Part shown: positions 4,751 through 22,752 of the stretch, piece by piece
How positions within the stretch are numbered: the stretch's first letter is position 1
Layout: each line of letters starts with the position of its first letter
Origin: a virus
Taxonomy: Duplodnaviria; Caudoviricetes
Strand: one strand, 5' to 3'
IMG/VR virus record: IMGVR_UViG_3300010397_000010
Coordinates: 1-61,825 of that record
DNA length: 61,825 nucleotides
Program-made: the position numbers and the translations under genes
Notes under the pieces: generated by a model
Databases searched by the model: none
Told to the model about the DNA's origin: nothing
Seen by the model: the letters and a program-made list of their open reading frames with translations, nothing else

Positions 4751-5042
4751 ACTTCTGTCTCAACTTCTGTCTCAAGTCTCAACTTTAAAACAGGAAACTT
4801 CTACCTGAGATAAATCAGTGCATTTCTTACACGATTTACCCTCTTTCCTTTATTTATATATTTCTTCTTCTTCTTCTTGAGACTTGAGACAGATATATAG
4901 AAGTATAAGAAAATACTGGATTTAGGCTGTCTCAACTTCTGTCTCAACTTTGTTTTCGTTCTTGAGACCAACGACTCTTGAGACACTCCACGTCCTCATT
5001 TGTCTCAACTTTCACGATAGAGTGAAGACGTAATTTGAGACA
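4751..5042. repeat. Iteron cluster, probable replication origin
   Basis: About 11 copies of (T)GTCTCAA/TTGAGAC(A) in both orientations around an AT-rich and (TTC)n tract, overlapping the helicase 3' end. Confidence 0.75.
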
Positions 5043-6389
5043 GTCGCCTAGCCGGATCTGAACTCCCCCATTCACTTGCGTTCCCATTTCATTCAGCCTT
5101 CTAGTCATCACTGTTGGGCCAATACGAACAGAAGGATACTGAGCGCAGAAGATGGCGTAGAGTTCTTTTGAAGTAAATAAGGTGCGATGATCGTCAGGGC
5201 CGAGAATAGACTCAGGGCATTCCAGAAGCTCCTTAATCCAAGCCTCTACATCGTCGTATCCAGCTTCTATGACATCCTGGCGAGACTTGGAAAGCGGAGC
5301 TGCCGCGCCGGGGGAAAATGGAGCGGGCTCGGAGGAATAAGGATCTCCTCCTACAATGGGCTTTAGGAGGTCAACCTTTAAAAGCCAATGGTGAATGGCC
5401 GAGAATCCTCCTGCCTTGAGCCAAGGATCTAATTTGCGGCGAAAGAACTCCTCAGGGAGCTTATTTGAGCCTACGTTATGAATGAAGAATCTGCGATCAT
5501 TCGGATCGAGGTAGAGAGATTCGAGATGATTCGAGGTGTAGTAGTAGTTAATGGTATCGCGTATCTCATATCTATTTTGATACTTCAGATCAACCGGAAT
5601 TGTATGGCGAGTAGTGTAGGATTTGAGAATTTCCGCCCTCTGCCTAGCCCGCGATCCTCCGGGCATTTCATCCACCTCAACAAACACCTTCCCCACGGCC
5701 CATCCATTATAAGAAGCCGTAAAATCGGCTTCCCTTAGCAGGGAGCAATTGTGTTGGCCATAGATTTCTTTGAGGATGTAGGCGAGGGTGGATTTACCTG
5801 TTCCGGTCTGCGATGACCAAAACACACACGCTGTATGGAGCTTTGTGCCGGGATTTTGAATAGGGTAGGCGATCCATCGAATGAACCAATCTCGATGCGT
5901 TGCATCTGAGGCAAAGAGATGATCGAGATATTCCAGCCACGGCGAGACATCTCCTTCAGCGGGGATATTGAGCGACCTAAACCAAGTGTTAAGGTTTCCA
6001 TCCTTCGTTATGCGCGGCTGACCAGGCTCGTAGACTGTTCGATTGACCTTATGACGTTGAGGCCATTTCATCCACTCTGAGGCTAGATAAATCCTTTTCT
6101 TCTTTCCATTTCCATCATTTACATCGATGAATCGATCACAATAATCTGCACACTTGAAATCATGAGGAGACATAAACTTAAGCCGAGTCTCTCCCGCTGG
6201 TGGGTAAAGTTCTGCAATCTCACTCGTTGCCCTTACATAGACGATTTCCTTATTAAGCTGATAGAGGGCAGAGCTAAGAGTTGCGGAAAGTTCTAAAGAT
6301 TTTGGCGTGGAGCCATTTGGAGGGACTATCGAGGGGATTAAGGTTGGTTTGGGGGATTGAGCAGGCTGTGCTAAGATTTCGGTGTCCAT
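4944..6389 (-). CDS. SF3/D5-like (DUF5906-type) replicative helicase, no primase domain evident
   Basis: Walker A QTGTGKST, Walker B VEVDE, motif C YYTSN, DRRFF arginine finger. Confidence 0.85.
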   Translation of the reverse strand: MDTEILAQPAQSPKPTLIPSIVPPNGSTPKSLELSATLSSALYQLNKEIVYVRATSEIAELYPPAGETRLKFMSPHDFKCADYCDRFIDVNDGNGKKKRIYLASEWMKWPQRHKVNRTVYEPGQPRITKDGNLNTWFRSLNIPAEGDVSPWLEYLDHLFASDATHRDWFIRWIAYPIQNPGTKLHTACVFWSSQTGTGKSTLAYILKEIYGQHNCSLLREADFTASYNGWAVGKVFVEVDEMPGGSRARQRAEILKSYTTRHTIPVDLKYQNRYEIRDTINYYYTSNHLESLYLDPNDRRFFIHNVGSNKLPEEFFRRKLDPWLKAGGFSAIHHWLLKVDLLKPIVGGDPYSSEPAPFSPGAAAPLSKSRQDVIEAGYDDVEAWIKELLECPESILGPDDHRTLFTSKELYAIFCAQYPSVRIGPTVMTRRLNEMGTQVNGGVQIRLGDCLKLRLHSIVKVETNEDVECLKSRWSQERKQS

Positions 6390-8264: not shown

Positions 8265-9371
8265 ATGCGCCGATATTGCCCCATCTGTGAATCCGGCTGG
8301 AGAGATACTCTCCATCAATTCGACTACTCCACCGGAGAGAGACAGATTCTCTCTTCCTGTAATCAATGTGGAATGGTTTATGCAAGCGAGACTCCTTCCG
8401 CAGATTATGGGAACCAGTCCAAGTATGCTTCCCCCGGCGCGAGTGGATCGGGGGAGAATGCCCAGGAGCTTAAGCGGCTAGATGAGCTGGTGACCATCCT
8501 CAGCGCCCACGTTCTGGATGAGCGCGCAAGGATTCTCGATATCGGCTGCGCCCGAGGGGGGTTGCTGCAAGCGCTCCGAAGGGCGGGCTTCGTTAATGCA
8601 GAAGGAATCGATCCCTCTAGGGGATGTGTGGAAGCGTGTCGAGTGAAGAGATTGATTGCTCATCAAGCGGACTTTACCGACCTAAATTCGATGAAGAATA
8701 AATGGGATTGCATAATCCTCTCCCATGTCCTAGAGCATGTGGAGGATGTGAAAGGAGCGCTTGAGAGCATTCATGAGGCGCTCGCGCCGGAAGGGATTCT
8801 GTATGTGGAGACTCCGAATGCTCTCCGATACTCGGCCAATGTCCCTTTCATGGAGACTAATCGAGAGCATATCAATCACTTTGATCTTGGACATTTAATG
8901 AAGGTTATTGATGAAATGGGATTCTCGGTCGAGAGTTGTGGGAGAAGAGATTTTGTTAGATTCCAAACTCCCATTCCCTCGATCTATGTGATCGCCAGTC
9001 GGACGGGGGATTGCCTTTCCGCCTCAGTGAGTAGATATCTTGAGGACTCAGAGGAGGAGTTGATAAAGCTAGAGAGATCGCTAAGGGAGGATCTAGAAGA
9101 GGTAAAGGAGATCGTGTTGTGGGGCTTTGGGGAATTTGCGCAGACTCTATTGAGGACGAAGATTCTCCAACAAATAAAGATTATCCAGATAATCGATTCG
9201 GATAAGGGAAAACATGGAGATAGGGTCGGGGGATTGATTGTCGAGTCCCCCGAGGGATTGTCGGATGGCCTTCCGATATTGATTGGATCAATCGTCAATC
9301 GAGAGAACATTCTTAGGGATATTCAGAAGATGAAGTTGAAAAATAGAGTGATTATGATTGGAGAATCATAA
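8265..9371 (+). CDS. Class I SAM methyltransferase with NDP-sugar C-methyltransferase-like architecture
   Basis: N-terminal CPIC...CNQCG Zn domain; ILDIGCARG; SHVLEHV; EHINHF; C-terminal WGFGE...IIDSDKGKHG Rossmann-like domain. Confidence 0.85.
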   Translation: MRRYCPICESGWRDTLHQFDYSTGERQILSSCNQCGMVYASETPSADYGNQSKYASPGASGSGENAQELKRLDELVTILSAHVLDERARILDIGCARGGLLQALRRAGFVNAEGIDPSRGCVEACRVKRLIAHQADFTDLNSMKNKWDCIILSHVLEHVEDVKGALESIHEALAPEGILYVETPNALRYSANVPFMETNREHINHFDLGHLMKVIDEMGFSVESCGRRDFVRFQTPIPSIYVIASRTGDCLSASVSRYLEDSEEELIKLERSLREDLEEVKEIVLWGFGEFAQTLLRTKILQQIKIIQIIDSDKGKHGDRVGGLIVESPEGLSDGLPILIGSIVNRENILRDIQKMKLKNRVIMIGES

Positions 9372-9850
9372 TGAGCGCAAACGACCCATACTTCGGAAAA
9401 CGATATAAATGGCTCGTTGATGCAATAAAGAGCCATAAATCCGATAAGTGTTTACTTTGGCCCTTTACTCTGCGTAAAAATGGATATGGGCGAGTTAGAA
9501 TTCCATCCGGCCCTATCGTGGCTACGCATCGGTTGGCATATAAACTCGCAAAAGGTCGCTGGCCTATTCCATGCGCTTTGCCTACTTGCGACGTGCCAAG
9601 ATGTGTAAATCCAAAACACATAAAAGCGGGTACTAACTCCGAAAATACCAAAGATAGAGAGCGCAAAGGAAGAGGAGCGAAAGGGGAGAGAATTCACGGA
9701 GCTAAGTTAACTCCAGACTTGGTGCGAATAATAAGGAAAGAATACAAGCCATGCGAAAACGGATTTAAAAAGGTTGCCGACAAATATGGAGTTTCTTGGA
9801 TGGCTATTTATTACATCATCAATGGAAAAAACTGGAGGCATGTGAAATGA
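9371..9850 (+). CDS. HNH homing endonuclease
   Basis: CLLWPF, GYGR, THRLAY, CDVPRCVNPKHI, N..D; C-terminal HTH; AT-richer than flanks. Confidence 0.85.
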   Translation: MSANDPYFGKRYKWLVDAIKSHKSDKCLLWPFTLRKNGYGRVRIPSGPIVATHRLAYKLAKGRWPIPCALPTCDVPRCVNPKHIKAGTNSENTKDRERKGRGAKGERIHGAKLTPDLVRIIRKEYKPCENGFKKVADKYGVSWMAIYYIINGKNWRHVK

Positions 9851-10608
9851 GGCATCCAGTTTTGCTCACCATGTACAACAGAACGCCAAGCCAGCTCGAA
9901 CTATCCAAGCTCGCCCTCCAAAGTGTGCTTAATCAGGATTTGGAGGGAATGGAGCTAACGATTATCAATAATGGCTCAACAGACTCCACAAGGGAATGGT
10001 TAAGTAATTTACAGGAAGATGGCGAAGATTTTACAGTAAGAACTTATGAAAAAAATCAGCACATTCTGAAGTTGATGAATGACCAGTTAAAGGATGTCTT
10101 TCGCACCTCAGATCATGTCCTGCTGGTGCCGAATGATGTTATTTTGCCTCCCAACGCTTACCGAGAGATGCTGAAGTGGCCGAGAGGATTCGTGAGCGCC
10201 ACCCCAATCGAGCAGGATGAGCCATTCCAGCCTTTAGCGGGAGAGGTGAAGGCGATCTCCGAGAACACTCCATTCTGCGTCATTCTTATCCGAAGGTGGG
10301 CTTATCGGGCGATTGTGGAGCATTCTGGATGCTTCTTCGACGAGTCGTTCGAACACTATGGAAGTGATTGTGATATTGCGCTGAGGATATCTGCTTGCGG
10401 CATAAGGGGAGTTCAACTAGACATTCCTGTTTGGCATTACCGCAGCGCATCATGGAGATTAGCGCCCTCAGGCGAAGGGGAGAAAATGACCTATCGCGCC
10501 GACGTAGATCGCGCTCACTTCCGACGAAGGTATGGATTCGAGGCGGGATCGACGGAGTATGCGGCTGCGGCGAGGGATATTAATTTCCGGGCGGGATATG
10601 GAGAGTAA
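9847..10608 (+). CDS. Glycosyltransferase family 2 (GT-A)
   Basis: LTMYNR, IINNGSTD, PNDV, FDESFEHYGSDCDIALR; ATGA coupling to the HNH gene. Confidence 0.85.
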   Translation: MRHPVLLTMYNRTPSQLELSKLALQSVLNQDLEGMELTIINNGSTDSTREWLSNLQEDGEDFTVRTYEKNQHILKLMNDQLKDVFRTSDHVLLVPNDVILPPNAYREMLKWPRGFVSATPIEQDEPFQPLAGEVKAISENTPFCVILIRRWAYRAIVEHSGCFFDESFEHYGSDCDIALRISACGIRGVQLDIPVWHYRSASWRLAPSGEGEKMTYRADVDRAHFRRRYGFEAGSTEYAAAARDINFRAGYGE

Positions 10609-11772
10609 ATGAGCACCAAACCTTCCCTCTGCGCCGATTCAGGTTGTGCTCTCGCCCACTTAGGAAGCGGATTTACGGAGGTGGAGATTGGCTTACGATA
10701 TGAACAAACAAAATTGCTCATCATCGGAGAAGCAAGCGGAGAATCCGAAGCAAGAGAAAGTCTACCATTTCGCCCCTATGCTCAGTCTGGTTCTCTCCTC
10801 GCGGACGGAATGCGCGAAGTTAATATCTCGCGTTCCGAAGTGGCTATTACGAACATCATCCGCTGCCGACCGCCGAAGGATTACTTAGAGGGGGCGAGTT
10901 ATCAAGAGAACGCAATCTCTCATTGCACCCTTAACTATCTCTACAAGACTATTGATGAGCTAAAGCCGCGAGCTATCCTTGCCTTAGGAGGAACTGCGTA
11001 TCGCGCCTTAGTGGATGCACCAAGGGGGAAATATGGAACACTTGACTACAGTAGGGGATATGTCCAGAGTGGATCGGGAGCGGCTAGTGGAATTCCAGTC
11101 ATTAGTACGTATCATCCCGCTTTCATCCGAAGAGGAGCTGCACACCTTACGCCTCTCCTTCATCGAGACTTACGGAGAGCTTTTCTCCTGGCTACGGGAA
11201 GGCTTAGAGAGGGGATTCATTATGCTCTGGATATTTCCTCTCTAGGGCTTAGGTATCAAACGAGCCCGACTATTGAGGAGGCTTGGGAATATGCCGAGAA
11301 TGTCGATCCTTCCCTCCCTTTAGCTTTCGATATAGAAACACCCCTAAGCACAAGGAGCGATGAAGATGAACGAACCAGTTTTACTGATCGTGATATCAAG
11401 CTGTTCCAATGCACACAGAAACGAGGAGAAGGAATTGCTCTCCCATATAGAGACGAGTATATCGGAGCTATACGGAGAATCCTTTCATCTGCACAAATCA
11501 AAGTCGGCTTTAATAACTGGAACTTCGATGACCCTGTGCTTAGTGCGAACGGAATAGATGTCGGATTGACTGAAGATGCAATGGTGATGTTCCGAATGTA
11601 TTATAGCGACCTCCCAAGTAACCTCCAAGCGGCAGCGCAGATGTGTGGATGGAGTCATCCTTGGAAACATTACTCCGAGTCCGATCTCGCGTGGTATGGA
11701 GTAAGTGATGTGGATGCGACGTTGTGCGTGTATGAGTATATGACTCGATTGCTGGCGGGAGAGCAAATATGA
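10609..11772 (+). CDS. Family-4 uracil-DNA glycosylase fused to PolA 3'-5' exonuclease (N-terminal half of split polymerase)
   Basis: IGEASG, TNIIRCRPP, TYHPAF; ExoI FDIET, ExoII FNNWNFD, ExoIII YGVSDVD. Confidence 0.9.
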   Translation: MSTKPSLCADSGCALAHLGSGFTEVEIGLRYEQTKLLIIGEASGESEARESLPFRPYAQSGSLLADGMREVNISRSEVAITNIIRCRPPKDYLEGASYQENAISHCTLNYLYKTIDELKPRAILALGGTAYRALVDAPRGKYGTLDYSRGYVQSGSGAASGIPVISTYHPAFIRRGAAHLTPLLHRDLRRAFLLATGRLREGIHYALDISSLGLRYQTSPTIEEAWEYAENVDPSLPLAFDIETPLSTRSDEDERTSFTDRDIKLFQCTQKRGEGIALPYRDEYIGAIRRILSSAQIKVGFNNWNFDDPVLSANGIDVGLTEDAMVMFRMYYSDLPSNLQAAAQMCGWSHPWKHYSESDLAWYGVSDVDATLCVYEYMTRLLAGEQI

Positions 11773-12503
11773 TTCCTTCATTTCGGCACATGGGCGGGAA
11801 AGCTAGACTAAGGAAATGGCTGATTTCTCATTTTCCCGCACAAGCGGATATGTATTTAGAGCCTTTTTGCGGCAAAGGGAATGTATACTATGCTGCCTGC
11901 GATAGTTTATTTTGCTTTAATTGGATCTTAGCGGATATAGACGGGAGCTTTTTAACCGCTCTACAAACTGCTAACCTAAATGAGCTGCCCGAAACAGTAG
12001 AAAAGGCTGATTTTTCGTTTTGGCGCAATAGCTCGTCGCCAATAGCAACTCTGATTGAGCCGAGAATTACTTTCGCAGGAAAGGGATATAGATATGGATT
12101 CTCCGGCAGCTCAGGTACTCATGTTGGGTATAACGGAGCGCTGTATAAGAAAGTTTGCGAGCAAGCTAGAACTCTTTTAAAGAATGCTCTAATTATTACG
12201 GGAGATTGGGAAACAACCATCCAATATGCACAAAATGAGGCGTTTGTTTATCTTGATCCCCCTTATTACGCCACTGATGCTTGTTACCCAAACATAGACC
12301 ATTCCACTTTAATTGATTGTTTGAATGCCGCATCGTTCAAGTGGGCATTGAGCGGATATGATAATGAGCTTTACAGATCCAAACTAAAATTTAAGACCTG
12401 CCATAAGTATGAACGTAATTCAGAAATCAAGAGTTCCAACACTGGAATGCGAACGCCAGTTATTGAGTGCTTATGGACAAATTATTCTATCGAGGAAGAA
12501 TAA
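11769..12503 (+). CDS. Dam/DpnM-type (alpha class) DNA adenine methyltransferase
   Basis: GGKARL, YLEPFCGKG, YLDPPYY, ECLWTNY. Confidence 0.9.
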   Translation: MIPSFRHMGGKARLRKWLISHFPAQADMYLEPFCGKGNVYYAACDSLFCFNWILADIDGSFLTALQTANLNELPETVEKADFSFWRNSSSPIATLIEPRITFAGKGYRYGFSGSSGTHVGYNGALYKKVCEQARTLLKNALIITGDWETTIQYAQNEAFVYLDPPYYATDACYPNIDHSTLIDCLNAASFKWALSGYDNELYRSKLKFKTCHKYERNSEIKSSNTGMRTPVIECLWTNYSIEEE

Positions 12504-14203
12504 TGACATCCACAATGCTCATCAGCTATCAAACCTACTTTCGCGATCTCTGGCCTATCCTCCGCGACATGAGCACTAGGGGGATTCCGATTGATGCCGT
12601 AAAGAGGGAAGAGTTGAGGGAGTTAATCGAGCGTGAATCTCTCAGGGTCGATGATGAGATTAGGAAAATGGTTCCCCCCGAAGTGCTTCAGAGGAAGCCT
12701 AAGAATGGTTACAAACTTCCCCCGATCCTAAGCTGCGAAGATTGTGGATGGAAAGGGAGGACGGATCATTTATGCGTCTTTCGAGCGTCATCAGATGATG
12801 CTGAGTTGATGCAGGTTTCATATACCGTATTGGCTGAACTCGCTGGATTAGTCCAAAGAGAAGTCATCATTGAAGGAGATCAGGAGAAATGTCAGTGCCG
12901 CAAGAAGTCAAGAGAATCGTGCCGCGTTTGCTCCGGCACCGGGATTGTGCCTGCGGGCACTGTAGAGCTGAGATGGGCGAGCCCGCTTGCATTCAATCCC
13001 AACTCCCGCCCTCAGGTGATTCGATACATCAAATATCTCGGCCACCCTGTCCCGAAACACGCGAAGAGAACGGATGCTAATGGGGATGCTTCCGATACAA
13101 CAGAGGTGAGAGAGTTAGAGAGATTATTCGCTAAGACTCATCATCCAATTTATCCTCTCTTGATCCAAAAACGGCAGCTCACTAAAATGCTCGGAACTTA
13201 TGTCGATGGCTACCAACCGCATAAGGATGGGAAGTTACATTCGACTTATGGCTATGGAACGGCAACGTGGCAACTCACGTCGAAATCTCCAAATGTCCAG
13301 AACTCTCCTGCGAGGGGAAAGAGTCCATTCCAGAAATCACTCGTCGAGGCGTTCAATCGGATGATGACTTCTTCCGAAGGATGTACATTAGTTAATTTCG
13401 ACTATAAGAGTTTCCACGCCCAAACTACAGCGTGTGAGGCGGGATTACCCGATTACCTTAGGCTAGCGAAGATTGATCTTCATTCATTCACAACATGCCA
13501 TTTCATCAAGCATCCAGATCGGCATGGATTGCTCAAACTGCCTGATAATGAGTTGAAGCAATTCTTTAAGGCTCAAAAGAAAGATGATCGAATTTGGCAG
13601 AATGGGATGACCTTTCTCGACATCAGGAATGGAAAGGCGAAGAGTTGCGGCCTCGCGGTCGGGTTTGGGGCTAGGCATAAGAAGATTTATCAACTCTACA
13701 AAGAAGATTTCGATAGCCAGCATGAAGTGGAGGTGTTATGGAATCTAATTGTGCATGAACTTTTTCCGGGCCTCTACAAGTGGCAAGAATCGATTAAGGA
13801 AAAGGCTGCGGAAGATAAGAGGCTAGTGTCCCGATTTGGGGCAATCCGTCATTTCTTCGACGTTCGTCATTGGGATCGAAAGCAGCAGAAATGGGCCGGA
13901 GGGGAGCAAGCTGAGGCTGCGATTGCGTTCCTTCCTGCTTCGAACGCTTTTGGGATGATCCGCTTCGGGATGCTTGAGATGGAGAAAAAGGGATTGCTTT
14001 CCAAATATCGTCTCATCAACTCTACACATGATTCATTGAAGTTCGACTGTCCGAATGAGCTGGTTCAGGAGTGCATTCAGCAAATCGTCCCTATTGCTCA
14101 AGCTCCATGTCCGATGATGATTTATCCAGGAGTAACGGGGCCGGAGGGATTGAGCGTTGAGGTGGAATCTCAAGTTGGATCATCAAATTTAGATTTACAT
14201 TAA
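12503..14203 (+). CDS. Family A DNA polymerase domain (C-terminal half) with Zn-finger thumb insertion
   Basis: DMSTRGIPID, FNPNSRPQV, PNVQN, motif A FDY, motif B R..AK...FG, motif C HDS; TAATG coupling. Confidence 0.9.
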   Translation: MTSTMLISYQTYFRDLWPILRDMSTRGIPIDAVKREELRELIERESLRVDDEIRKMVPPEVLQRKPKNGYKLPPILSCEDCGWKGRTDHLCVFRASSDDAELMQVSYTVLAELAGLVQREVIIEGDQEKCQCRKKSRESCRVCSGTGIVPAGTVELRWASPLAFNPNSRPQVIRYIKYLGHPVPKHAKRTDANGDASDTTEVRELERLFAKTHHPIYPLLIQKRQLTKMLGTYVDGYQPHKDGKLHSTYGYGTATWQLTSKSPNVQNSPARGKSPFQKSLVEAFNRMMTSSEGCTLVNFDYKSFHAQTTACEAGLPDYLRLAKIDLHSFTTCHFIKHPDRHGLLKLPDNELKQFFKAQKKDDRIWQNGMTFLDIRNGKAKSCGLAVGFGARHKKIYQLYKEDFDSQHEVEVLWNLIVHELFPGLYKWQESIKEKAAEDKRLVSRFGAIRHFFDVRHWDRKQQKWAGGEQAEAAIAFLPASNAFGMIRFGMLEMEKKGLLSKYRLINSTHDSLKFDCPNELVQECIQQIVPIAQAPCPMMIYPGVTGPEGLSVEVESQVGSSNLDLH

Positions 14204-14287: not shown

Positions 14288-14989
14288 ATGCCTGAGCCGA
14301 AGCCGGAGAAGTTGAGAATATCCGCAATCGAGTGTCTAAGTTGTCACCGCATTGGATTAGCGGTCAACGATAAACGAATCACGCCTCACAAGTGCTTTGG
14401 ACAGTGGCACACGGTTATCGAAGCGGAGTACGCAGCGCGGATCGTGGAGGCGATGAACCGGGAACCATTGTTCCGGTGTGGTCTGTACACACTTCACAGT
14501 GGGGATACGTCCGAGTTCAAGATCGACTGTGACGCGCTAACAGATGCCGATCTCAATGTCGTCGCTCACGAATTAAGAAAGCGTCTACCGCCATTCTCTG
14601 CCGTTGTGGGCGTGCCGACCGGAGGAGAACGGATTGCTGAGAAACTGCGGCCCTACGGAAACACGAATGGCGCGAAGATCCTCATTGTAGATGACGTGCT
14701 GACTACTGGCGCTTCGATGGAAGAATGTCGCAACGGGCAGGATGTGATCGGCGCGGTGATCTTCGCACGGGGCAAGTGTCCCGAGTGGGTAACGCCGCTG
14801 TTTCAGATGGAAGCTGAACGAAACCCCGCGCCGCAGCCGGTTGAACTGACGGAGGCCGAAAAGTTGTTTCGGAATAAGGTGCCAAAGTTCTTAACATCAG
14901 AGATTGAATCTGCGAGTTGGCATACGTCGGCTGCGTACATAAACAGGTTGCTCGCCATCATCGACCGTTTAACGAAAGGACGCGGCTAA
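14288..14989 (+). CDS. Mosaic protein with orotate phosphoribosyltransferase-like domain
   Basis: LHSGDTSEFKID, GVPTGG, ILIVDDVLTTGAS PRPP loop. Confidence 0.8.
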   Translation: MPEPKPEKLRISAIECLSCHRIGLAVNDKRITPHKCFGQWHTVIEAEYAARIVEAMNREPLFRCGLYTLHSGDTSEFKIDCDALTDADLNVVAHELRKRLPPFSAVVGVPTGGERIAEKLRPYGNTNGAKILIVDDVLTTGASMEECRNGQDVIGAVIFARGKCPEWVTPLFQMEAERNPAPQPVELTEAEKLFRNKVPKFLTSEIESASWHTSAAYINRLLAIIDRLTKGRG

Positions 14990-15873: not shown

Positions 15874-17400
15874 GTGAGCAACTGTAAAGATTGTGATGAC
15901 TGTGCGCGTCATGCGTATTCTGACGCTACCACCCCAGGGTTCTTCTATGACAAATGCGAGAAGCACCGCCTGACTCCCGCTGCCCCGCCCTTCCTTCCAT
16001 CGAAGGGCGATGACTGCAAGCGCGGCTTCGTTATCCAGATCAATCAGCACACTCCCGTACTTGGTGAAGTGAGTCCTGAGGAAGTTCGGGAAGCAGTAGC
16101 AGAAGCCATCGAACAACTAGGGGTGAACATTCAGGAAGAGGTTGATTTCACGCTAGAGGTTAGCCGCATGTACTCAAACGCTCCCTCCCTTCCATCGGGC
16201 AAGCAGGACGAATACCCTGAGTGGATGGACGACGCTATTCTCATTTGCGGCAAGCACGCGGTTGTGTTCACCAAGGAATCCGATGAGTGCTTTGTATGCA
16301 CGAATCGCCAACCATCAGGCAAGCCGACCGAGGAGGAGGCGCGACAACTCGCACAAGCAGCGCGTGAGATGATCCGCGCCCATAACCCCTCAACTTCCGT
16401 TGCACAGACTGACAATCCCGCCGTGCGGCCATGTCCGTTCTGTAATGGCAAGAAAACCGCGATGGCCTGCGATTCCATTAACGGCAAAGGTGAAATGACC
16501 AATCCAAGAGAGGCCGTTTGCATGGTCTGTAAAGGAACCGGAGTAGAGCCACCCGAAGAAGATGGCACTGAGCATGGCACCCCGCTTTCTGTGCGAGAGA
16601 CAGTCGAGAATAAGCTAGTGGAAATACTCCGCACATATATCTACCATGATCGGCCTCGGACAGACCGCTGGATAAAACGGCGCAGCATCTATGATGCGAT
16701 TCTTCGCTTATGTGTCGAACCTGCTACCCACGTCACGGCGCAGCTCCGCGCTGAGAATGAGCAATTGAGGCGCGACTTGTACAAGGCCATCGAAACACAG
16801 AATGCTAACGCCGTAACTGCGTTGCTCGCGGCGAAGGAAGCAGGTTGGAGTGTGGCAAAACAGGAACACCTACTCGAAGGGAATCAAGACGCAGCAACAG
16901 TGATAACGGATCTCCGCGCCAAGCTCGCCACTGTGGAGCGCGATCTCGCAGAGAAAGAGAAGGAGATCAAGCCATTCACATTCATGCCAGAGCGTATCGC
17001 TACTATGCTGGCGTTTTGGGATGACGTATGTTCGCGATCGTTTAATCCAGAAGCATCTGATATGTGCGAGATCGTCCGGCAACTCCAGCACCAACTCTCC
17101 AAGGCCGAGCGTGCCCTCTCTGACCAAATCGCCATCACCGAGCGAGTCCGTTCCGGGAAGAATGATTACAAGGCGCTGGCGCAGCGGCGCGGGGAGGCAC
17201 TGAAACTGATTGTGGATTTAACCAGAGACGATGAATGCGATGAAGAGTGTCCGCATTGTATTGCGCGTGCTGCCCTCTCAGACGACGATGGCTGCGTGGC
17301 TCGGTGCGACCGTCCCGACAGGCACGAAGGGGGTCACGTAGACAGCGTTATTGCCATTGGCTGGCCCTCGCAGCCTTCAGGAGAAGGGAAAGAGAAATGA
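15874..17400 (+). CDS. Mosaic multi-domain accessory protein (Zn fingers and coiled coil)
   Basis: AAGGAG SD; CPFCNG..CMVCKGTG; Ead/Ea22-like mosaic style. Confidence 0.7.
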   Translation: MSNCKDCDDCARHAYSDATTPGFFYDKCEKHRLTPAAPPFLPSKGDDCKRGFVIQINQHTPVLGEVSPEEVREAVAEAIEQLGVNIQEEVDFTLEVSRMYSNAPSLPSGKQDEYPEWMDDAILICGKHAVVFTKESDECFVCTNRQPSGKPTEEEARQLAQAAREMIRAHNPSTSVAQTDNPAVRPCPFCNGKKTAMACDSINGKGEMTNPREAVCMVCKGTGVEPPEEDGTEHGTPLSVRETVENKLVEILRTYIYHDRPRTDRWIKRRSIYDAILRLCVEPATHVTAQLRAENEQLRRDLYKAIETQNANAVTALLAAKEAGWSVAKQEHLLEGNQDAATVITDLRAKLATVERDLAEKEKEIKPFTFMPERIATMLAFWDDVCSRSFNPEASDMCEIVRQLQHQLSKAERALSDQIAITERVRSGKNDYKALAQRRGEALKLIVDLTRDDECDEECPHCIARAALSDDDGCVARCDRPDRHEGGHVDSVIAIGWPSQPSGEGKEK

Positions 17401-17646: not shown

Positions 17647-18981
17647 ATGAACACAGATCGTTCCCGCATCTTAGCCGCCCAAAGTTGTCCCCGATCCCGT
17701 TATCTAGCCTACCATATCCATGGCACAGGAATTCAAAAGAAGGCTAAGAGTTTACCCCTACAATTTGGGAGCGCTTTCCATATCGGATCTGAAATACTAC
17801 TTAACGGGCCTGATATTTCAGGAAGATCAATCGAAGAAACCTCTAAATTATGGGGAAAAAGTGTTATTGAGGTAGCTGTCGAAAAGGCCCGCCAATTCCT
17901 CGCCGATGAATTTGCCGCGCACCAGATCGGCTTCGACGGCGAGCCTTCGGAGGATATTCAGCGAGCGATGGAATATGGGCAAGAGGAACAAATGGCCCTT
18001 GCCGAGGGATTGCTGAGGGCTTGGTGGATTTACGAAGGTGAATCATTCCTTGAGAACTTTGAGATTATCGAAGTGGAAAAGGAAGGCCGCGTGAATCTCA
18101 CAAATGAGCCTCACGAGTGGCGCGATTTGGGAAATAAAGAGAAACAGTGTATTCATTGTGGAGCGATTGAGTGCAGTTCAGCGGGAGAGCGCTCTTGTAT
18201 GCGATCTCTTGTGCTCATGTTCCGCCCCGACGCTCTCGTTAGGGACAAGCAGAGTGGCGACTATTACATCATCTCTTGGAAAACTTGCTCAACATTCACT
18301 CAGCGGACGATTAATCAGGCGAGGGTGGATATGCAATCGATGTCCGAAGTGTTCGGGGTTGAGCAGAATCGGGGGATCAAGGTTGAAGGAGTCATCTATC
18401 GTTTCGTGGTAAAGGGCCAACGTCGCCTCGATAATTATGACAAGCTCTACAAGCAAGGATCACACTTAGCGTATGGATGGAAAAAACTCGGCAAGCCGGG
18501 AGATGAAGGAGTTGAGTGGAGTTGGACTTTCGCCTGGCCGAAGGAGGATGATTCGGGCGAATCTCGATTAGGGAAAGGATGGCAGAAGGTTCCCATCTGG
18601 AGAGATTATCCCGGTGGCGTGAAGCAATGGATTGAGGACTTGAGCAATAACCAAATCTTTCCTCGCCACATCGATGCGCTGGCGAATGTGTTTCCTCAGT
18701 CGCTTCCAGTTGAGCGGAGAAAGGATGAGGTTGAATCATGGAAGCGACAGGTGATCGCGCAAGAGACGGAAATAGAAAAGCGAGTTACACTGATGGCGGA
18801 CTCTGAAAAATGGGCCATTAAAGAGAATCTCGATGAGCTGTTTCCCCAACATACCCATTCATGTTGGAGTTATTCGGGCTGCCCTTTTATTCCAGTTTGT
18901 TGGGAAGGGATTGCGCCGGAGCCGGGGGAGCTATACCAGATTAGAACTCAGAATCATCCAGAAAAAGAATTGGAGGATTAG
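17647..18981 (+). CDS. Cas4/RecB-like PD-(D/E)XK exonuclease
   Basis: SCPRS, FGSAFH, VEKE, RPDAL, IISWKT, C-terminal CWSYSGCPFIPVC. Confidence 0.8.
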   Translation: MNTDRSRILAAQSCPRSRYLAYHIHGTGIQKKAKSLPLQFGSAFHIGSEILLNGPDISGRSIEETSKLWGKSVIEVAVEKARQFLADEFAAHQIGFDGEPSEDIQRAMEYGQEEQMALAEGLLRAWWIYEGESFLENFEIIEVEKEGRVNLTNEPHEWRDLGNKEKQCIHCGAIECSSAGERSCMRSLVLMFRPDALVRDKQSGDYYIISWKTCSTFTQRTINQARVDMQSMSEVFGVEQNRGIKVEGVIYRFVVKGQRRLDNYDKLYKQGSHLAYGWKKLGKPGDEGVEWSWTFAWPKEDDSGESRLGKGWQKVPIWRDYPGGVKQWIEDLSNNQIFPRHIDALANVFPQSLPVERRKDEVESWKRQVIAQETEIEKRVTLMADSEKWAIKENLDELFPQHTHSCWSYSGCPFIPVCWEGIAPEPGELYQIRTQNHPEKELED

Positions 18982-19196: not shown

Positions 19197-19378
19197 TGCC
19201 CCTCTACATTTGCCTTGACTATGTTAAGGATGGAAAGATCGCTGCTTGGGTCAGGCGATCCAATAACTATAATGATGTTTGGGGCGATGCCGAAGTGTCC
19301 GAGTTGACTACTAAAAAATGTCTTTACTCCCTCGCAAAGAAGATTGGATCGCTTGAGATTGATGAGGAGTCTAAATGA
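19196..19378 (+). CDS. Hypothetical protein
   Basis: TGATG coupling. Confidence 0.55.
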   Translation: MPLYICLDYVKDGKIAAWVRRSNNYNDVWGDAEVSELTTKKCLYSLAKKIGSLEIDEESK

Positions 19379-20340
19379 GCGCGATCACAAATAAAACTTC
19401 CCTCCTATGCTATGGAGCAAGTGATAGCGGCAAATCAACTCAAGCTCGATACATCGCAGAGTTTGTATGGGAGCGATATAAGAAAAAGACTCGCCTCATC
19501 GCCCTCGATAGGGGATCTCTATGGGCACCTTGCGCAGATCTCGTGGATGCGGGTATTGTGATTCCTCTCGAATTCCCTACGAGCTATGAATTCAATCCAA
19601 TGGCCATCATGCGGAAGTTGAGACGGGGCGAGTGGCCTAAGAATGGAGTGATCTTAAAGCCTTCTGCAAAGGAATCGAAGAAGGCGAATGGAGAGATTGA
19701 GATAAAATACACCACAAACACTCTATGGGAGCCTTGGGCTGACGCTACGACTGATGAGATCGGAGCGATAGTGATCGACTCTCTGACCTCCTTCGCAACT
19801 TCATTCATGTCCGATGTGAAGCAAAAGAATATCAGGATCGGACAAGACAGTGGAAATCCTCCGAGGAATGAAGAAGGTGAGCAGATTGGCTCGAATACAA
19901 TCTCTCATTATGCCGATACCCACACGGAGATCCTTGATGCGCTCCAAGCATTCCAATCCCTTCCAGTCCATATCACAATGTTCACCGCCCTTGAGGGATT
20001 AGGGGCGGATGATGACTCGGGAGTGAAGCGTCCAGCGTTAGGGCCGGAGACAGTCGGGAAGGCCATCAACGGCAAGCTCCCTTCGAGGGTGAATCATTGC
20101 TTCCATCTCGTCGCGGAAGGATTAGGGAGCAAGAAAATAGTTAAAGCATTTTATTGTAAGCACCCTTCTGAGCTTGGTGATAGATTAATGTGGCCGAGCA
20201 AAATTACACTTCCTCCAGCACTGTTGAAAGAATTTTGGGCCAAATACCCGAACGGCTATATGCAACTCTCACTAGAGAAGGGAATTGGGGAATTCTTAGA
20301 GTTCATCTCGAAGGAAAAGGAGCTTAAAGTTGCCCTCTAA
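19375..20340 (+). CDS. AAA_24/Sak4-like ATPase
   Basis: YGASDSGKST, IVIDSLT, GPETVGK; lies between exonuclease and SSB-like genes. Confidence 0.8.
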   Translation: MSAITNKTSLLCYGASDSGKSTQARYIAEFVWERYKKKTRLIALDRGSLWAPCADLVDAGIVIPLEFPTSYEFNPMAIMRKLRRGEWPKNGVILKPSAKESKKANGEIEIKYTTNTLWEPWADATTDEIGAIVIDSLTSFATSFMSDVKQKNIRIGQDSGNPPRNEEGEQIGSNTISHYADTHTEILDALQAFQSLPVHITMFTALEGLGADDDSGVKRPALGPETVGKAINGKLPSRVNHCFHLVAEGLGSKKIVKAFYCKHPSELGDRLMWPSKITLPPALLKEFWAKYPNGYMQLSLEKGIGEFLEFISKEKELKVAL

Positions 20341-20831: not shown

Positions 20832-21527
20832 ATGGCAAACGAAGTAGAGTACCGACCGGAATTGATGGACACATTGGAAGAAGATCAGACTTTGCTCCCT
20901 GCCGAGTTCGATCCCGATGCCGATTATGCAGCACCCGCACCGCCTCTCCCTGATGGCTGGTATCAGGCCATTTTGACCTGTCAGGGAGTGAAGGATGAGA
21001 ACGGAGCGCTAGTCCCCTTCAGGAAGCGTCCTTGGGGCACCATCCCCTCCACCTTCCACACTTCGATCCAGGCGAAGATTGTCGATCCCTCTGGATTGCA
21101 AGATGGAAAGTACGCCACCGATAACACAGTCACGACTCACTCCGATCCGAAGCGACACAATACCTCGAAGGTGGCGACTTATTATCGCGCCTTAACTGGA
21201 AAGCCGATTCCCGGTGTGTCTGAGGGGCAGCACATGAAGGCCCTTTTGAGCGAGCTTCAGTCGGCTCCGATGGTTTGGATCAAGACGCAGCTTGAAGGTC
21301 AGGCATCGGACGCATCGAAGGCGTTCTCCGAGGCCAAGAAGTTCAACAATGGCAAGGCTCCGGAGGGAATGAAGGCTCCTCGCACGTTCAGAGGGGAGAA
21401 GAATTTCTTTGAGAATGGCAAGCTAACGGGAAGGGTATTCGATGATGCTGCTGGAGAGTGGGTAGTCGGGCGTCCGGTGATTGCGGACATCAAGCATATC
21501 TCGTTCGAGCCGCCCACGAAGAAATAG
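20832..21527 (+). CDS. Putative ssDNA-binding protein
   Basis: PLPDGWYQAIL OB-type start; position after Sak4-like gene. Confidence 0.55.
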   Translation: MANEVEYRPELMDTLEEDQTLLPAEFDPDADYAAPAPPLPDGWYQAILTCQGVKDENGALVPFRKRPWGTIPSTFHTSIQAKIVDPSGLQDGKYATDNTVTTHSDPKRHNTSKVATYYRALTGKPIPGVSEGQHMKALLSELQSAPMVWIKTQLEGQASDASKAFSEAKKFNNGKAPEGMKAPRTFRGEKNFFENGKLTGRVFDDAAGEWVVGRPVIADIKHISFEPPTKK

Positions 21528-21954: not shown

Positions 21955-22752
21955 TCATTTCCAGGGAGCCCCGAGGTGACCTACCCACCCATCGCAGGTA
22001 TCATTCCCCCCGGCTGCCTTGAAGTAATCATAAGGGATAAGAAGGTTTCCCGAAAGGCCCCATTTATCACCCCACGAATTGCGAACTTTAAATGCTCCCT
22101 TTTTCAATCGATCATCATACCCATAAACGAGCATCTCATGTCCTCCCACAGGGGATTCATTCGGATGGGGAATCGGGAGCATTCCATCCTTAGCCACCTT
22201 TTCACCTTCGATGGCTTGATAGACTGGAACTCCGATAGTGCAACAATATCCACTCGCCAACACAGACTTCATCGTATACATCCCTTGATCGATCAGAATG
22301 CGATGATACGCCCCAATTTTGAACGATTCCCCATTCAAGATCATCTCATCTGAAGGGGGAGAGGTGATGAGAGTATCTGAGAATGGATTGATTGAATCGA
22401 GACAGATTCCGATTTGATTCAACACCCTGAAGATGGTGCGGGAGTCTGATCCATCGTCAGCCGGAAAGGAGCCATCCTTCATCCTCTCTTCAGCGTAAAG
22501 GAAGAGAGCAGAGAAGAAGGGATCACTCAAGTCCTTAATCGGAAAGTATTGAGCGAACTCCCGATAAAGCCAATCCATGAATCCCGCCCCCGCTTGACCT
22601 GTACAGGAGCCTGATTGCCCTTGATCCCTCACCGGCCCGAGCTTCGACAAGAGGTTAATGGAAGCCGGTAGTTTTCTCAGCGACCTTAGGGCGAGGTGAT
22701 CCCTTTTGTCCTCCACATCCTTTTTGACATTAAACACTCTCTTAATGGGCAT
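21955..22752 (-). CDS. Papain-like (C1A) cysteine peptidase
   Basis: DQGQSGSCTG, GGHEMLVYGYDD, VRNSWGDKWG: intact Q/C/H/N. Confidence 0.92.
   Translation of the reverse strand: MPIKRVFNVKKDVEDKRDHLALRSLRKLPASINLLSKLGPVRDQGQSGSCTGQAGAGFMDWLYREFAQYFPIKDLSDPFFSALFLYAEERMKDGSFPADDGSDSRTIFRVLNQIGICLDSINPFSDTLITSPPSDEMILNGESFKIGAYHRILIDQGMYTMKSVLASGYCCTIGVPVYQAIEGEKVAKDGMLPIPHPNESPVGGHEMLVYGYDDRLKKGAFKVRNSWGDKWGLSGNLLIPYDYFKAAGGNDTCDGWVGHLGAPWK

Follow-up and report, generated by a model that had tools for sequence, protein, structure and literature searches.

Residue R668 of E. coli DNA polymerase I and its partners are treated as nearly immutable in family A DNA polymerases (PolAs), and the locus described here raises the question of what it means when a phage polymerase has replaced them. 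The polymerase is encoded by a complete phage genome (Duplodnaviria; Caudoviricetes) from IMG/VR, record IMGVR_UViG_3300010397_000010; the record has direct terminal repeats, CheckV rates it as 100% complete, and its whole 61,825 bp are referred to below as the window. An original prediction, made from the sequence of the window, described a PolA with a concertedly rewired active site and proposed that the enzyme may be adapted to a non-canonical substrate or template, or may prime its own synthesis. Our analysis points to a widespread and hitherto uncharacterized type of family A polymerase, which is probably an ordinary replicase whose active-site network has been re-engineered.

Active-site substitutions and their conservation

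The polymerase was compared with canonical PolAs in four alignments: one by phmmer against Taq, two by MAFFT that included both E. coli Pol I (L001) and T7 gp5 (L002), and an hhalign profile-profile comparison. Against the Taq structures, phmmer paired TATWQLTS with TATGRLSS, and likewise DYKSFHAQ with DYSQIELR, with the highest posterior support, and hhalign matched a 44-sequence family profile to nine canonical PolAs with a probability of 100% (E 3e-51). All four methods gave the same equivalences, which rules out an alignment artifact, and R668, E710 and Q849 were not restored by the PolA, T7 gp5 or profile alignment. In E. coli numbering, the window carries G667W, R668Q, S707K, I709F, E710H, R712Q, F762L and Y766F, followed in the C-terminal part by R841E, N845A, Q849A and E883S. 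Of these, G667W, R668Q, E710H, R712Q, F762L, Y766F, R841E, N845A, Q849A and the HDS of motif C stand where the original prediction had placed them. The equivalents of D705, D882, K758 and R754, which it had listed as kept, are all present, as is H881; the spacing differs, since the R754 equivalent (R387) lies five residues before K392 and not the canonical four, a one-residue insertion that is common to the whole family. For motif 6 the methods differed by one residue, and Q849 was equated with A491 and N845 with A487 because distant family members that still have Gln, together with T7 LLQS, fix the register.

A profile-free exhaustive search returned 3,491 cluster representatives at E ≤ 1e-3 and 327 (50% identity clusters) at E ≤ 1e-30; the residue counts given here refer to 263 retrieved homologues. 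At position 668, Gln was found in 247 sequences, Ser in 3 and a gap in 13 (Gln in 247/250 non-gap sequences), while position 710 was His in 252, Phe in 7, Gln in 1 and a gap in 3 (His in 252/260 non-gap sequences). When the set was filtered at 80% identity (192 sequences), Q668 was present in 192/192 and H710 in 187/192. The K758 equivalent is kept in 259/263 (gap in 4), the R754 equivalent is Arg in 259/263 and the D705 equivalent is Asp in 258/263. Position 762 is Leu in 226 and His in 14; position 766 is Phe in 205, Asn in 24, Leu in 14 and Tyr in 3; position 849 is Ala in 193, Ser in 28 and Gln in 19; and position 883 is Ser in 167, Ala in 46, Asp in 15 and Glu in 12. Replacement of E883 by Ser or Ala is clade-wide, yet either residue is also common there outside the clade, so that this change is not specific to the R668Q and E710H step. 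Position 667 is Trp in 95 and Gly in 128, with Trp limited to the subclade of the window, so that G667W belongs to the rewiring of that subclade only. Decay into a pseudogene, against which the original prediction had already argued, was ruled out, as both open reading frames (ORFs) are undamaged and the residues that took over are invariant in their turn. The sequence data support the substitutions as a conserved, selected signature of the clade.

A second search, seeded with a basal member and reaching the edge of the family, added 56 sequences, among which 42 had Gln668 with His710, 10 had Arg668 with Glu710 and 4 were incomplete or misaligned (the misaligned one showed Gln and His in a later MAFFT alignment). 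The mixed states, Arg with His or Gln with Glu, were found in 0 sequences. Three metagenomic members of the Arg/Glu set, P0307, P0310 and P0311, are the nearest relatives of the clade; they keep R668, E710, Y766, Q849 and E883, and already have Val at 712, His at 762 (position B3) and Ala or Ser at 845. His at B3 is absent from the B3 variants (Phe, Tyr, Leu) that are named in the published descriptions consulted. Rooted trees of 54 and 39 sequences were built with FastTree and carry neither bootstrap values nor a test of alternative topologies; in the 39-sequence tree (426 columns), the canonical PolAs are followed by P0311 and P0307/P0310 and then by the clade, with a local support of 0.916. 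Basal clade members have His at B3, and a few of them still have Tyr766 with Gln849. Positions 400 (Y766) and 491 (Q849) are paired, with Phe accompanied by Ala, Ser or Cys in 205/205, Leu by Gln in 13/14 and Tyr by Gln in 3/3; these counts ignore phylogeny, and the Leu/Gln state is scattered over the unrooted tree.

Based on these data, we infer that R668 and E710 were replaced together, by Gln and His, at the origin of a large monophyletic clade of uncultured phages. The order of events looks stepwise, with changes at 712, 762 and 845, then R668Q with E710H, then the coupled 766/849 pair and finally G667W. The description of the rewiring as concerted thus holds for R668Q and E710H, which always occur together, and in a weaker form for Y766 and Q849, which co-vary; the other changes came in steps. 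The prediction had also named homologues without the substitutions as a finding that would speak against it, and the Gln/His pair proved to be clade-wide. Many family members (P0121, P0133, P0143, P0162 and others, of 1100-1700 aa) are much longer and matched the query in three separate stretches, which suggests inteins or inserted domains in the polymerase domain.

The clade is poorly represented among named phages. INPHARED yielded no close cultured relative, with all 47 records below 60% identity and the 30 listed at 21-27%, and in a species-genome collection of 185,579 genomes, two contigs from metagenome-assembled genomes encode a clade member. In the literature searched, no PolA group was described as having Gln and His in these places, although the figures or supplements of PMC10201439 and PMC13697223 could still show one. 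In the accessible text of PMC6302109 (Nasko et al. 2018), uracil, R668, E710 and similar terms are not mentioned.

Organization of the polymerase locus

The plus strand between 10609 and 14203 carries three translationally coupled genes, which encode a uracil-DNA glycosylase (UDG)-like and exonuclease protein, a Dam-like methyltransferase and the polymerase (Table 1). The exonuclease stop overlaps the Dam start (ATGA) and the Dam TAA stop overlaps the polymerase ATG (TAATG); the polymerase ORF is open from a GTG at 12467, and the count of 566 aa starts at the ATG at 12503. As judged from these genes, the window polymerase is a two-subunit UDG-exonuclease-PolA, in line with the two-subunit enzyme of the original prediction, with products totaling 953 aa. 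In homologues, the two subunits often form a single polypeptide of ~900-950 aa. Among 51 related IMG/VR loci and the window, the fused form was found in 37 and a split or partial form in 15; the 51 loci came from an alignment-based scan, and a single-protein scan of IMG/VR gave none. A homologue of subunit 1 is present in 48/51 related loci. The Dam-like gene is most simply a lineage-specific insertion, because it occurs in 0/51 related loci and because L003-L006, the closest relatives, share the split point of the window with nothing inserted between the genes. In other split relatives, 200-1700 bp separate the exonuclease and polymerase genes at this site, a space that may hold other inserted genes.

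Membership in family A was clear from Pfam PF00476 (72.1 bits against a cut-off of 34.3). The AlphaFold2 model of the polymerase subunit had a mean pLDDT of 93.5, and its best Foldseek matches were KlenTaq and Bst Pol I complexes (E ~1e-17 to 1e-18, probability 1.00). No further DNA polymerase was detected by PHROG among the other 61 ORFs of the window, and a PolB or DnaE-type polymerase domain was found in 0/5 complete genomes with a rewired PolA (the window and the genomes holding L010, L015, L017 and L030). The split UDG-exonuclease/polymerase enzyme is the only recognizable DNA polymerase of the phage. An insertion in the thumb region, without counterpart in canonical PolAs, carries a DnaJ-like zinc knuckle (CxC...CxxCxGxG) that the 44-sequence consensus retains; its position resembles that of thumb insertions in T7 and phiKMV-like enzymes.

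Family-4 UDGs are marked by motif A, GE(A/G)PG, motif B, HP(S/A), and the cysteines of a 4Fe-4S cluster. In the window, E41, G44, H169, P170 and the four Cys are among the conserved residues, but the Pro of motif A is not. In a set of 189 homologous N-terminal regions, the four Cys are found in 86-96% and H169/P170 in 95-98%, and GEAxGxxE is present. The exonuclease motifs, which the original prediction had listed as kept, are conserved in 96-100% of these sequences and lie in the separate upstream ORF: D241/E243 in 100%, D307 in 99%, Y363/D367 in 100% and N302 within the overall range.

By gene content, the polymerase belongs to a conserved replication module similar in kind to that of phage N4. 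The module of the window includes a PD-(D/E)XK exonuclease, a Sak4-like ATPase and a DUF669-like protein, of a type that acts as a single-stranded DNA-binding protein (SSB). The window also encodes a DUF5906/VapE-like helicase on the other strand. A PIF1/Dda-like helicase family occurs near the polymerase in 22 loci, and none was recognized in the window. Close relatives carry HNH-AP2 homing-endonuclease-like genes directly after the polymerase (L003:11615-12088 and similar), and several HNH families were matched among the other ORFs of the window. The PHROG glycosyltransferase families phrog_2170 and phrog_4356 were matched, by one ORF or two, among the 61 remaining ORFs, a count that excludes the GT2 gene.

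Table 1. Predicted features of the polymerase locus and of neighboring genes in the window (residue changes in E. coli numbering)
Feature	Position	Strand	Evidence and remarks
Subunit 1: UDG-like (~aa 1-200) and 3'-5' exonuclease (~aa 225-387)	10609-11772	+	387 aa; Pfam UDG 2.9e-20, DNA_pol_A_exo1 2.4e-4
Dam-like D12-class N6-adenine DNA methyltransferase	11769-12503	+	DPPY motif; Pfam MethyltransfD12 2.1e-11; PHROG DNA methyltransferase 6.2e-29
Subunit 2: family A polymerase domain (thumb, palm, fingers)	12503-14203	+	566 aa; Pfam DNA_pol_A 5.5e-20; PHROG 17 4e-35
Insertion of ~100 aa, beta-rich, Cys-containing, before the FNPNS segment (thumb region)	12674-12982	+	Gap of the canonical profile in hhalign; beta strands in model
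TGR-motif equivalent T-A-T-W-Q	13259-13273	+	G667W, R668Q; W268 13268-13270, Q269 13271-13273
Motif A, DYKSFHAQ	13400-13423	+	Steric-gate Glu to His317, R712 to Q; D312 13400-13402, H317 13415-13417, Q319 13421-13423
Motif B/O-helix, R387-N-G-K-A-K392-S-C-G-L396-A-V-G-F400-G	13625-13669	+	F762 to L, Y766 to F; R387 13625-13627, K392 13640-13642, L396 13652-13654, F400 13664-13666
Motif 6, E483-A-A-I-A487-F-L-P-A491-S	13913-13942	+	E483 13913-13915, A487 13925-13927, A491 13937-13939
Motif C, H521-D522-S523	14027-14035	+	His and Asp kept, E883 to S; codons read
DUF5906/VapE-like superfamily 3 (SF3) helicase	4944-6389	-	Pfam; homologue in 5/51 loci
S-adenosylmethionine (SAM) methyltransferase (Methyltransf_23), HNH endonuclease and GT2 glycosyltransferase cluster	8265-10608		Immediately precedes the polymerase genes; none of the three is conserved with the polymerase
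Phosphoribosyltransferase (PRTase)-like protein	14288-14989		Just downstream of the polymerase; phosphoribosyl pyrophosphate (PRPP)-loop-like motif, N-terminal Cys pairs; Pfam below cut-off, E 1.5e-4; 0/51 loci
508-aa Cys-rich ORF	15874-17400		Several CxxC and CxxCxGxG; no family match; Atlas pLDDT 0.48; not conserved in related loci
PD-(D/E)XK (Cas4/RecB-like) exonuclease	17647-18981	+	PHROG exonuclease 1.1e-12; homologue in 31/51 loci
Sak4-like/AAA_24 ssDNA-annealing ATPase	19375-20340	+	Pfam AAA_24; PHROG Sak4-like 5.5e-13; homologue in 31/51 loci
DUF669-like protein	20832-21527	+	ESM Atlas 0.95 to DUF669-named clusters (lead only); gene cluster spans 26 sources including the window
ORF with weak Peptidase_C1 (papain-family) match	21955-22752	-	C-terminal 36 residues only; E 3e-6

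Comparison with characterized polymerases

Of the cultured or described phage PolAs that we aligned, N4 gp39, SP-10, Lebethron, MW202455, vir526, JP1, RHph_Y1_11 and Jojan60 keep TGR (SGR in N4), Glu710, Tyr766 and Gln849, and the sole partial deviant was Mel-JY34, with TFR and Asp. Three of the changes that the original prediction had listed, F762L, Y766F and HDS, are present but are known variants. Leu at B3 and Phe at B4 (position 766) are described for PolAs (PMC10201439, PMC8599892), and B3 is reported to be the most variable of the conserved positions (PMC10201439). Residue 883 is Ser, Ala, Asp or Gln in 9/10 other phage PolAs, with Glu only in T7, and HDS is therefore unremarkable, given that HDS, HDA, HDD or HDQ occurs in most of them. 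The TGR motif is described as conserved even in single-subunit RNA polymerases, and the sole exception noted in the text for the 19 PolA clusters is Ala for Thr in cluster #14 (PMC10201439; Czernecki et al. 2023).

In architecture, the closest known systems are SP-10 (SPO1-like) and the Lebethron/MW202455/vir526 type (~44 kb), which share the order of family-4 UDG-like domain, 3'-5' exonuclease and polymerase, with conserved UDG motifs. Their records are the best matches of the N-terminal subunit of the window, at an identity of only 22-28%. A PD-(D/E)XK exonuclease gene and a Sak4-like/AAA gene, both of which the window has near its polymerase, come after the polymerase gene in Lebethron and MW202455 and upstream of it in vir526. 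However, SP-10 and the Lebethron type keep TGR, Glu710, Arg712, Tyr766, Asn845 and Gln849; beside SP-10, the one SPO1-like sequence compared, the window shows the UDG-exonuclease-polymerase architecture and the UDG motifs and lacks the canonical polymerase motifs. In some of these records, thymidylate-synthase-like or dCMP deaminase genes adjoin the polymerase, whereas none was found in the loci and genomes of the rewired clade that were searched.

The N4-like PolA (cluster #17) has the same UDG-exonuclease-polymerase arrangement, and the N4 module comprises a helicase, an exonuclease, a Sak4-like protein and an SSB. N4 gp39 differs in having SGR, Glu, Phe at B3, Tyr, Asn, Gln and HDA, and N4 encodes a recognizable primase, unlike the window. 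The catalytic residues of the N4 UDG are described as lost (PMC10201439), whereas the clade keeps GEAxG, HP and the four Cys, and has Leu at B3. The SP15-like UDG-PolAs of YerA41 and phiLo contain a fused, active UDG and have a replicative role (PMC13697223; Missoury et al. 2026), and their UDG part is weakly similar to that of the window. These enzymes reach ~1300 aa through a pair of large inserts and an added C-terminal domain (~80 aa), co-occur with PolX and a ligase, and come from T-hypermodified phages (PMC13697223), in contrast to the window, whose two subunits total 953 aa, which has no C-terminal extension by hhalign and in which no gene of a hydroxymethyluracil (hmU) pathway was found, PolX not having been searched. 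The T7-like PolAs with split exonuclease and polymerase (Czernecki et al. 2023) also use two adjacent genes and belong to a different subfamily; in the window, the upstream gene adds a UDG-like domain and a methyltransferase gene sits in the split.

The φVC8-like DpoZ shares Leu at B3, Phe at B4 and HDS in motif C with the window, in line with the original prediction that some changes are common to both. In φVC8 DpoZ, however, TGR, Q849 and the Glu of the steric gate are retained, a UDG domain is lacking, and the blastp match to the window is not significant (E 0.066). DpoZ enzymes, which fall into the φVC8-like or Wayne-like clusters, are linked to PurZ and DatZ; the adenylosuccinate-synthetase family was found in 0/5 complete genomes, which bears out the predicted absence of PurZ, and no DatZ-aimed search was made. 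A lab-evolved KlenTaq reverse transcriptase for 2'-modified RNA was considered as a parallel and found no support, TGR being reported there without significant mutations.

Human Pol γ offers the most direct comparison for the Arg-to-Gln change. Pol γ R853, the equivalent of Klenow R668, hydrogen-bonds the sugar O4' of the incoming dNTP and the primer end, and stabilizes Asp890, Glu895, His1134, Asp1135 and Glu1136 as one network (PMC11122685; Park et al. 2024). R853A, R853Q and R853W give no synthesis, while exonuclease activity remains with Arg to Gln (PMC11122685). The disease allele R853Q places Gln at the same site as in the clade; Trp, which replaces R853 itself in the allele R853W, stands one residue earlier in the window (G667W). 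In Pol γ each R853 change alone abolishes synthesis, whereas in the clade Gln is the wild type and the equivalents of E895, E1136 and Q1102 are changed as well.

Proposed mechanism and alternative explanations

We lean, at slightly better than even confidence, toward the reading that the genes at 10609-11772 and 12503-14203 encode an active, dNTP-using, proofreading replicase with a rebuilt, neutral network and relaxed minor-groove checking on the template side. The charged network Arg668-Glu710-His881-Asp882-Glu883 would have become a neutral Gln/His/Ser network, in which His317 may serve as a planar steric gate under the sugar and Gln269 may retain one hydrogen bond to the primer terminus or sugar. 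We propose that the hydroxyl missing from Phe400 would be dispensable because its Glu partner is gone. With the template-side minor-groove contacts N845 and Q849 dropped in most members, geometric checking on that side would be relaxed, and the intact exonuclease and the UDG-like domain would compensate for it. Loss of R841 and the change of E883 to Ser or Ala would have accompanied R668Q and E710H clade-wide, with Tyr766/Gln849 passing later, and coupled, to Phe/Ala. A joint replacement has a physical rationale, since the R853 network of Pol γ ties the same residues together (PMC11122685). Arg to Gln, Glu to His and Glu to Ser or Ala changed together while the His-Asp pair was kept, as expected of a network that was rebuilt rather than broken.

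Several points weigh against an active ordinary replicase. The same change in Pol γ, R853Q, leaves no detectable synthesis, and mutation of R668 cuts the proficiency of Klenow ~1300-fold (PMC11122685). Because R853Q is null, activity in the clade needs compensation, and the sole further family-specific near-invariant positions found, N518, E483, F433 and L453, are candidate compensators. Activity of the clade enzymes is predicted from sequence and a structural model, and their use of ordinary substrates is a default assumption that leans weakly on absent modification genes in genomes with many unannotated ORFs.

Among the alternatives, a lesion- or abasic-site-tolerant replicase coupled to its own UDG, in which the UDG-like domain would remove uracil in front of the polymerase and loss of the R668, N845 and Q849 checks would permit insertion opposite abasic sites and extension past them, appears unlikely to us. 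The UDG-PolAs of YerA41 and phiLo are reported to remove dU before the fork arrives and to insert dA when they pass abasic sites (PMC13697223), and the clade retains its UDG motif residues and four Cys to the extent given above (86-98% of 189), unlike the N4-like enzymes (PMC10201439). In 4 loci, a gene of an RNA_ligase family adjoins the polymerase. On the other hand, SP-10 and the Lebethron/MW202455 type, with a UDG reported or inferred to be active, have canonical R668, E710, N845 and Q849, so that UDG coupling does not require rewiring; the UDG activity of the clade is only predicted, with the Pro of GEAPG not conserved, and PolX or an AP (apurinic/apyrimidinic) endonuclease was not seen, neither having been looked for. 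We regard as similarly improbable an adaptation of the active site to non-canonical nucleotides or templates (rNTP, Z-type, or modified in the sugar or the minor groove), with modified virion DNA as its consequence. The replaced residues are indeed the reported contacts to the sugar O4' and the minor groove (PMC11122685), DpoZ likewise has Leu at B3 and Phe at B4, and GT2, SAM methyltransferase, Dam and PRTase-like genes lie near the polymerase of the window. These four genes were each found in 0/51 related loci and were rejected as partners of the rewired site. PurZ-like, ThyA-like, ThyX and TGT/DpdA-like genes were found in 0/5 complete genomes, and no nucleotide-metabolism PHROG was matched among the other 61 ORFs of the window. 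A tblastn search with the ThyA and dCMP deaminase of related-module phages gave nothing in 53 loci and the window, at low sensitivity across these groups, as the PD-(D/E)XK and ligase queries also matched nothing. A Z-genome with DpoZ was rejected, there being no PurZ-like gene and DpoZ itself keeping R668, E710 and Q849; hmU or T-hypermodification of the SPO1/SP-15 type (no ThyA, ThyX or dCMP deaminase match) and 7-deazaguanine (no TGT/DpdA-like gene) found no support. In T7 RNA polymerase, the Tyr hydroxyl at B4 reads the 2'-OH; the Tyr to Phe change at B4 removes this hydroxyl, which speaks against rNTP use.

It seems very unlikely that the polymerase domain is dead or feeble, a scaffold for the exonuclease/UDG or the replisome, with a host polymerase copying the genome. 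The behavior of Pol γ R853Q, with its synthesis lost and its exonuclease retained (PMC11122685), would fit such a role. Both catalytic Asp, His881, the O-helix Arg and Lys and the replacement Gln and His are, however, invariant down to ~30% identity, which fits selection on the active site and not relaxation, and the polymerase lies within a full set of phage replication genes that includes a helicase, an annealase and an SSB-like protein. The least credible of these alternatives, and pure conjecture, is that the polymerase primes itself or initiates without a primase. The primase catalytic domains Prim-Pol, DnaG zinc-ribbon and Toprim_2 (PF09250, PF01807, PF13155) were found in 0/5 complete genomes, and the PHROG 'DNA primase' matches of the DUF5906/VapE-like protein span profile positions ~450-810 only, which is the helicase half. 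The statement that no primase is evident therefore holds for these three Pfam families, the only ones searched, in genomes where many conserved ORFs are unannotated, and a missing primase is weak evidence for self-priming. The exonuclease and Sak4-like pair is compatible with recombination-dependent initiation, a host primase is possible, and nothing in the sequence points to de novo initiation. Taken against gene content, the modified-substrate and self-priming ideas of the original prediction are not supported.

An active, rebuilt replicase, as we prefer to read it, would copy DNA somewhat differently from its studied relatives. Whether the lineage uses a different principle of sugar and minor-groove recognition, with neutral Gln/His/Ser standing in for Arg/Glu/Glu and the minor groove of the template no longer read, and hence has a substrate or template range beyond that of canonical PolAs, is a more doubtful matter; examples of such a range, themselves offered as one tentative and rather unlikely reading, would be sugar- or minor-groove-modified nucleotides, RNA or damaged templates, and primase-independent initiation.

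The clade has Gln as its conserved wild type at a site where Arg was held to be indispensable, and the occurrence of Gln668 with His710 across the 327 clusters amounts to a natural experiment in the rebuilding of an active-site network. It offers testable epistasis through swaps between Gln and Arg and between His and Glu, both here and in Klenow, and might supply polymerases whose tolerance toward the sugar or the minor groove is unusual, for use in xeno nucleic acid (XNA) work and sequencing. The signature also provides a marker that sets a group of uncultured phages apart from the 19 PolA clusters in the literature. If the enzyme is an ordinary dNTP replicase, the value of the finding is mechanistic; if it is not, the clade points to new phage DNA chemistry. 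Were a different recognition principle true, the resulting range would reflect undiscovered DNA chemistry or an undiscovered replication mode in widespread uncultured phages.

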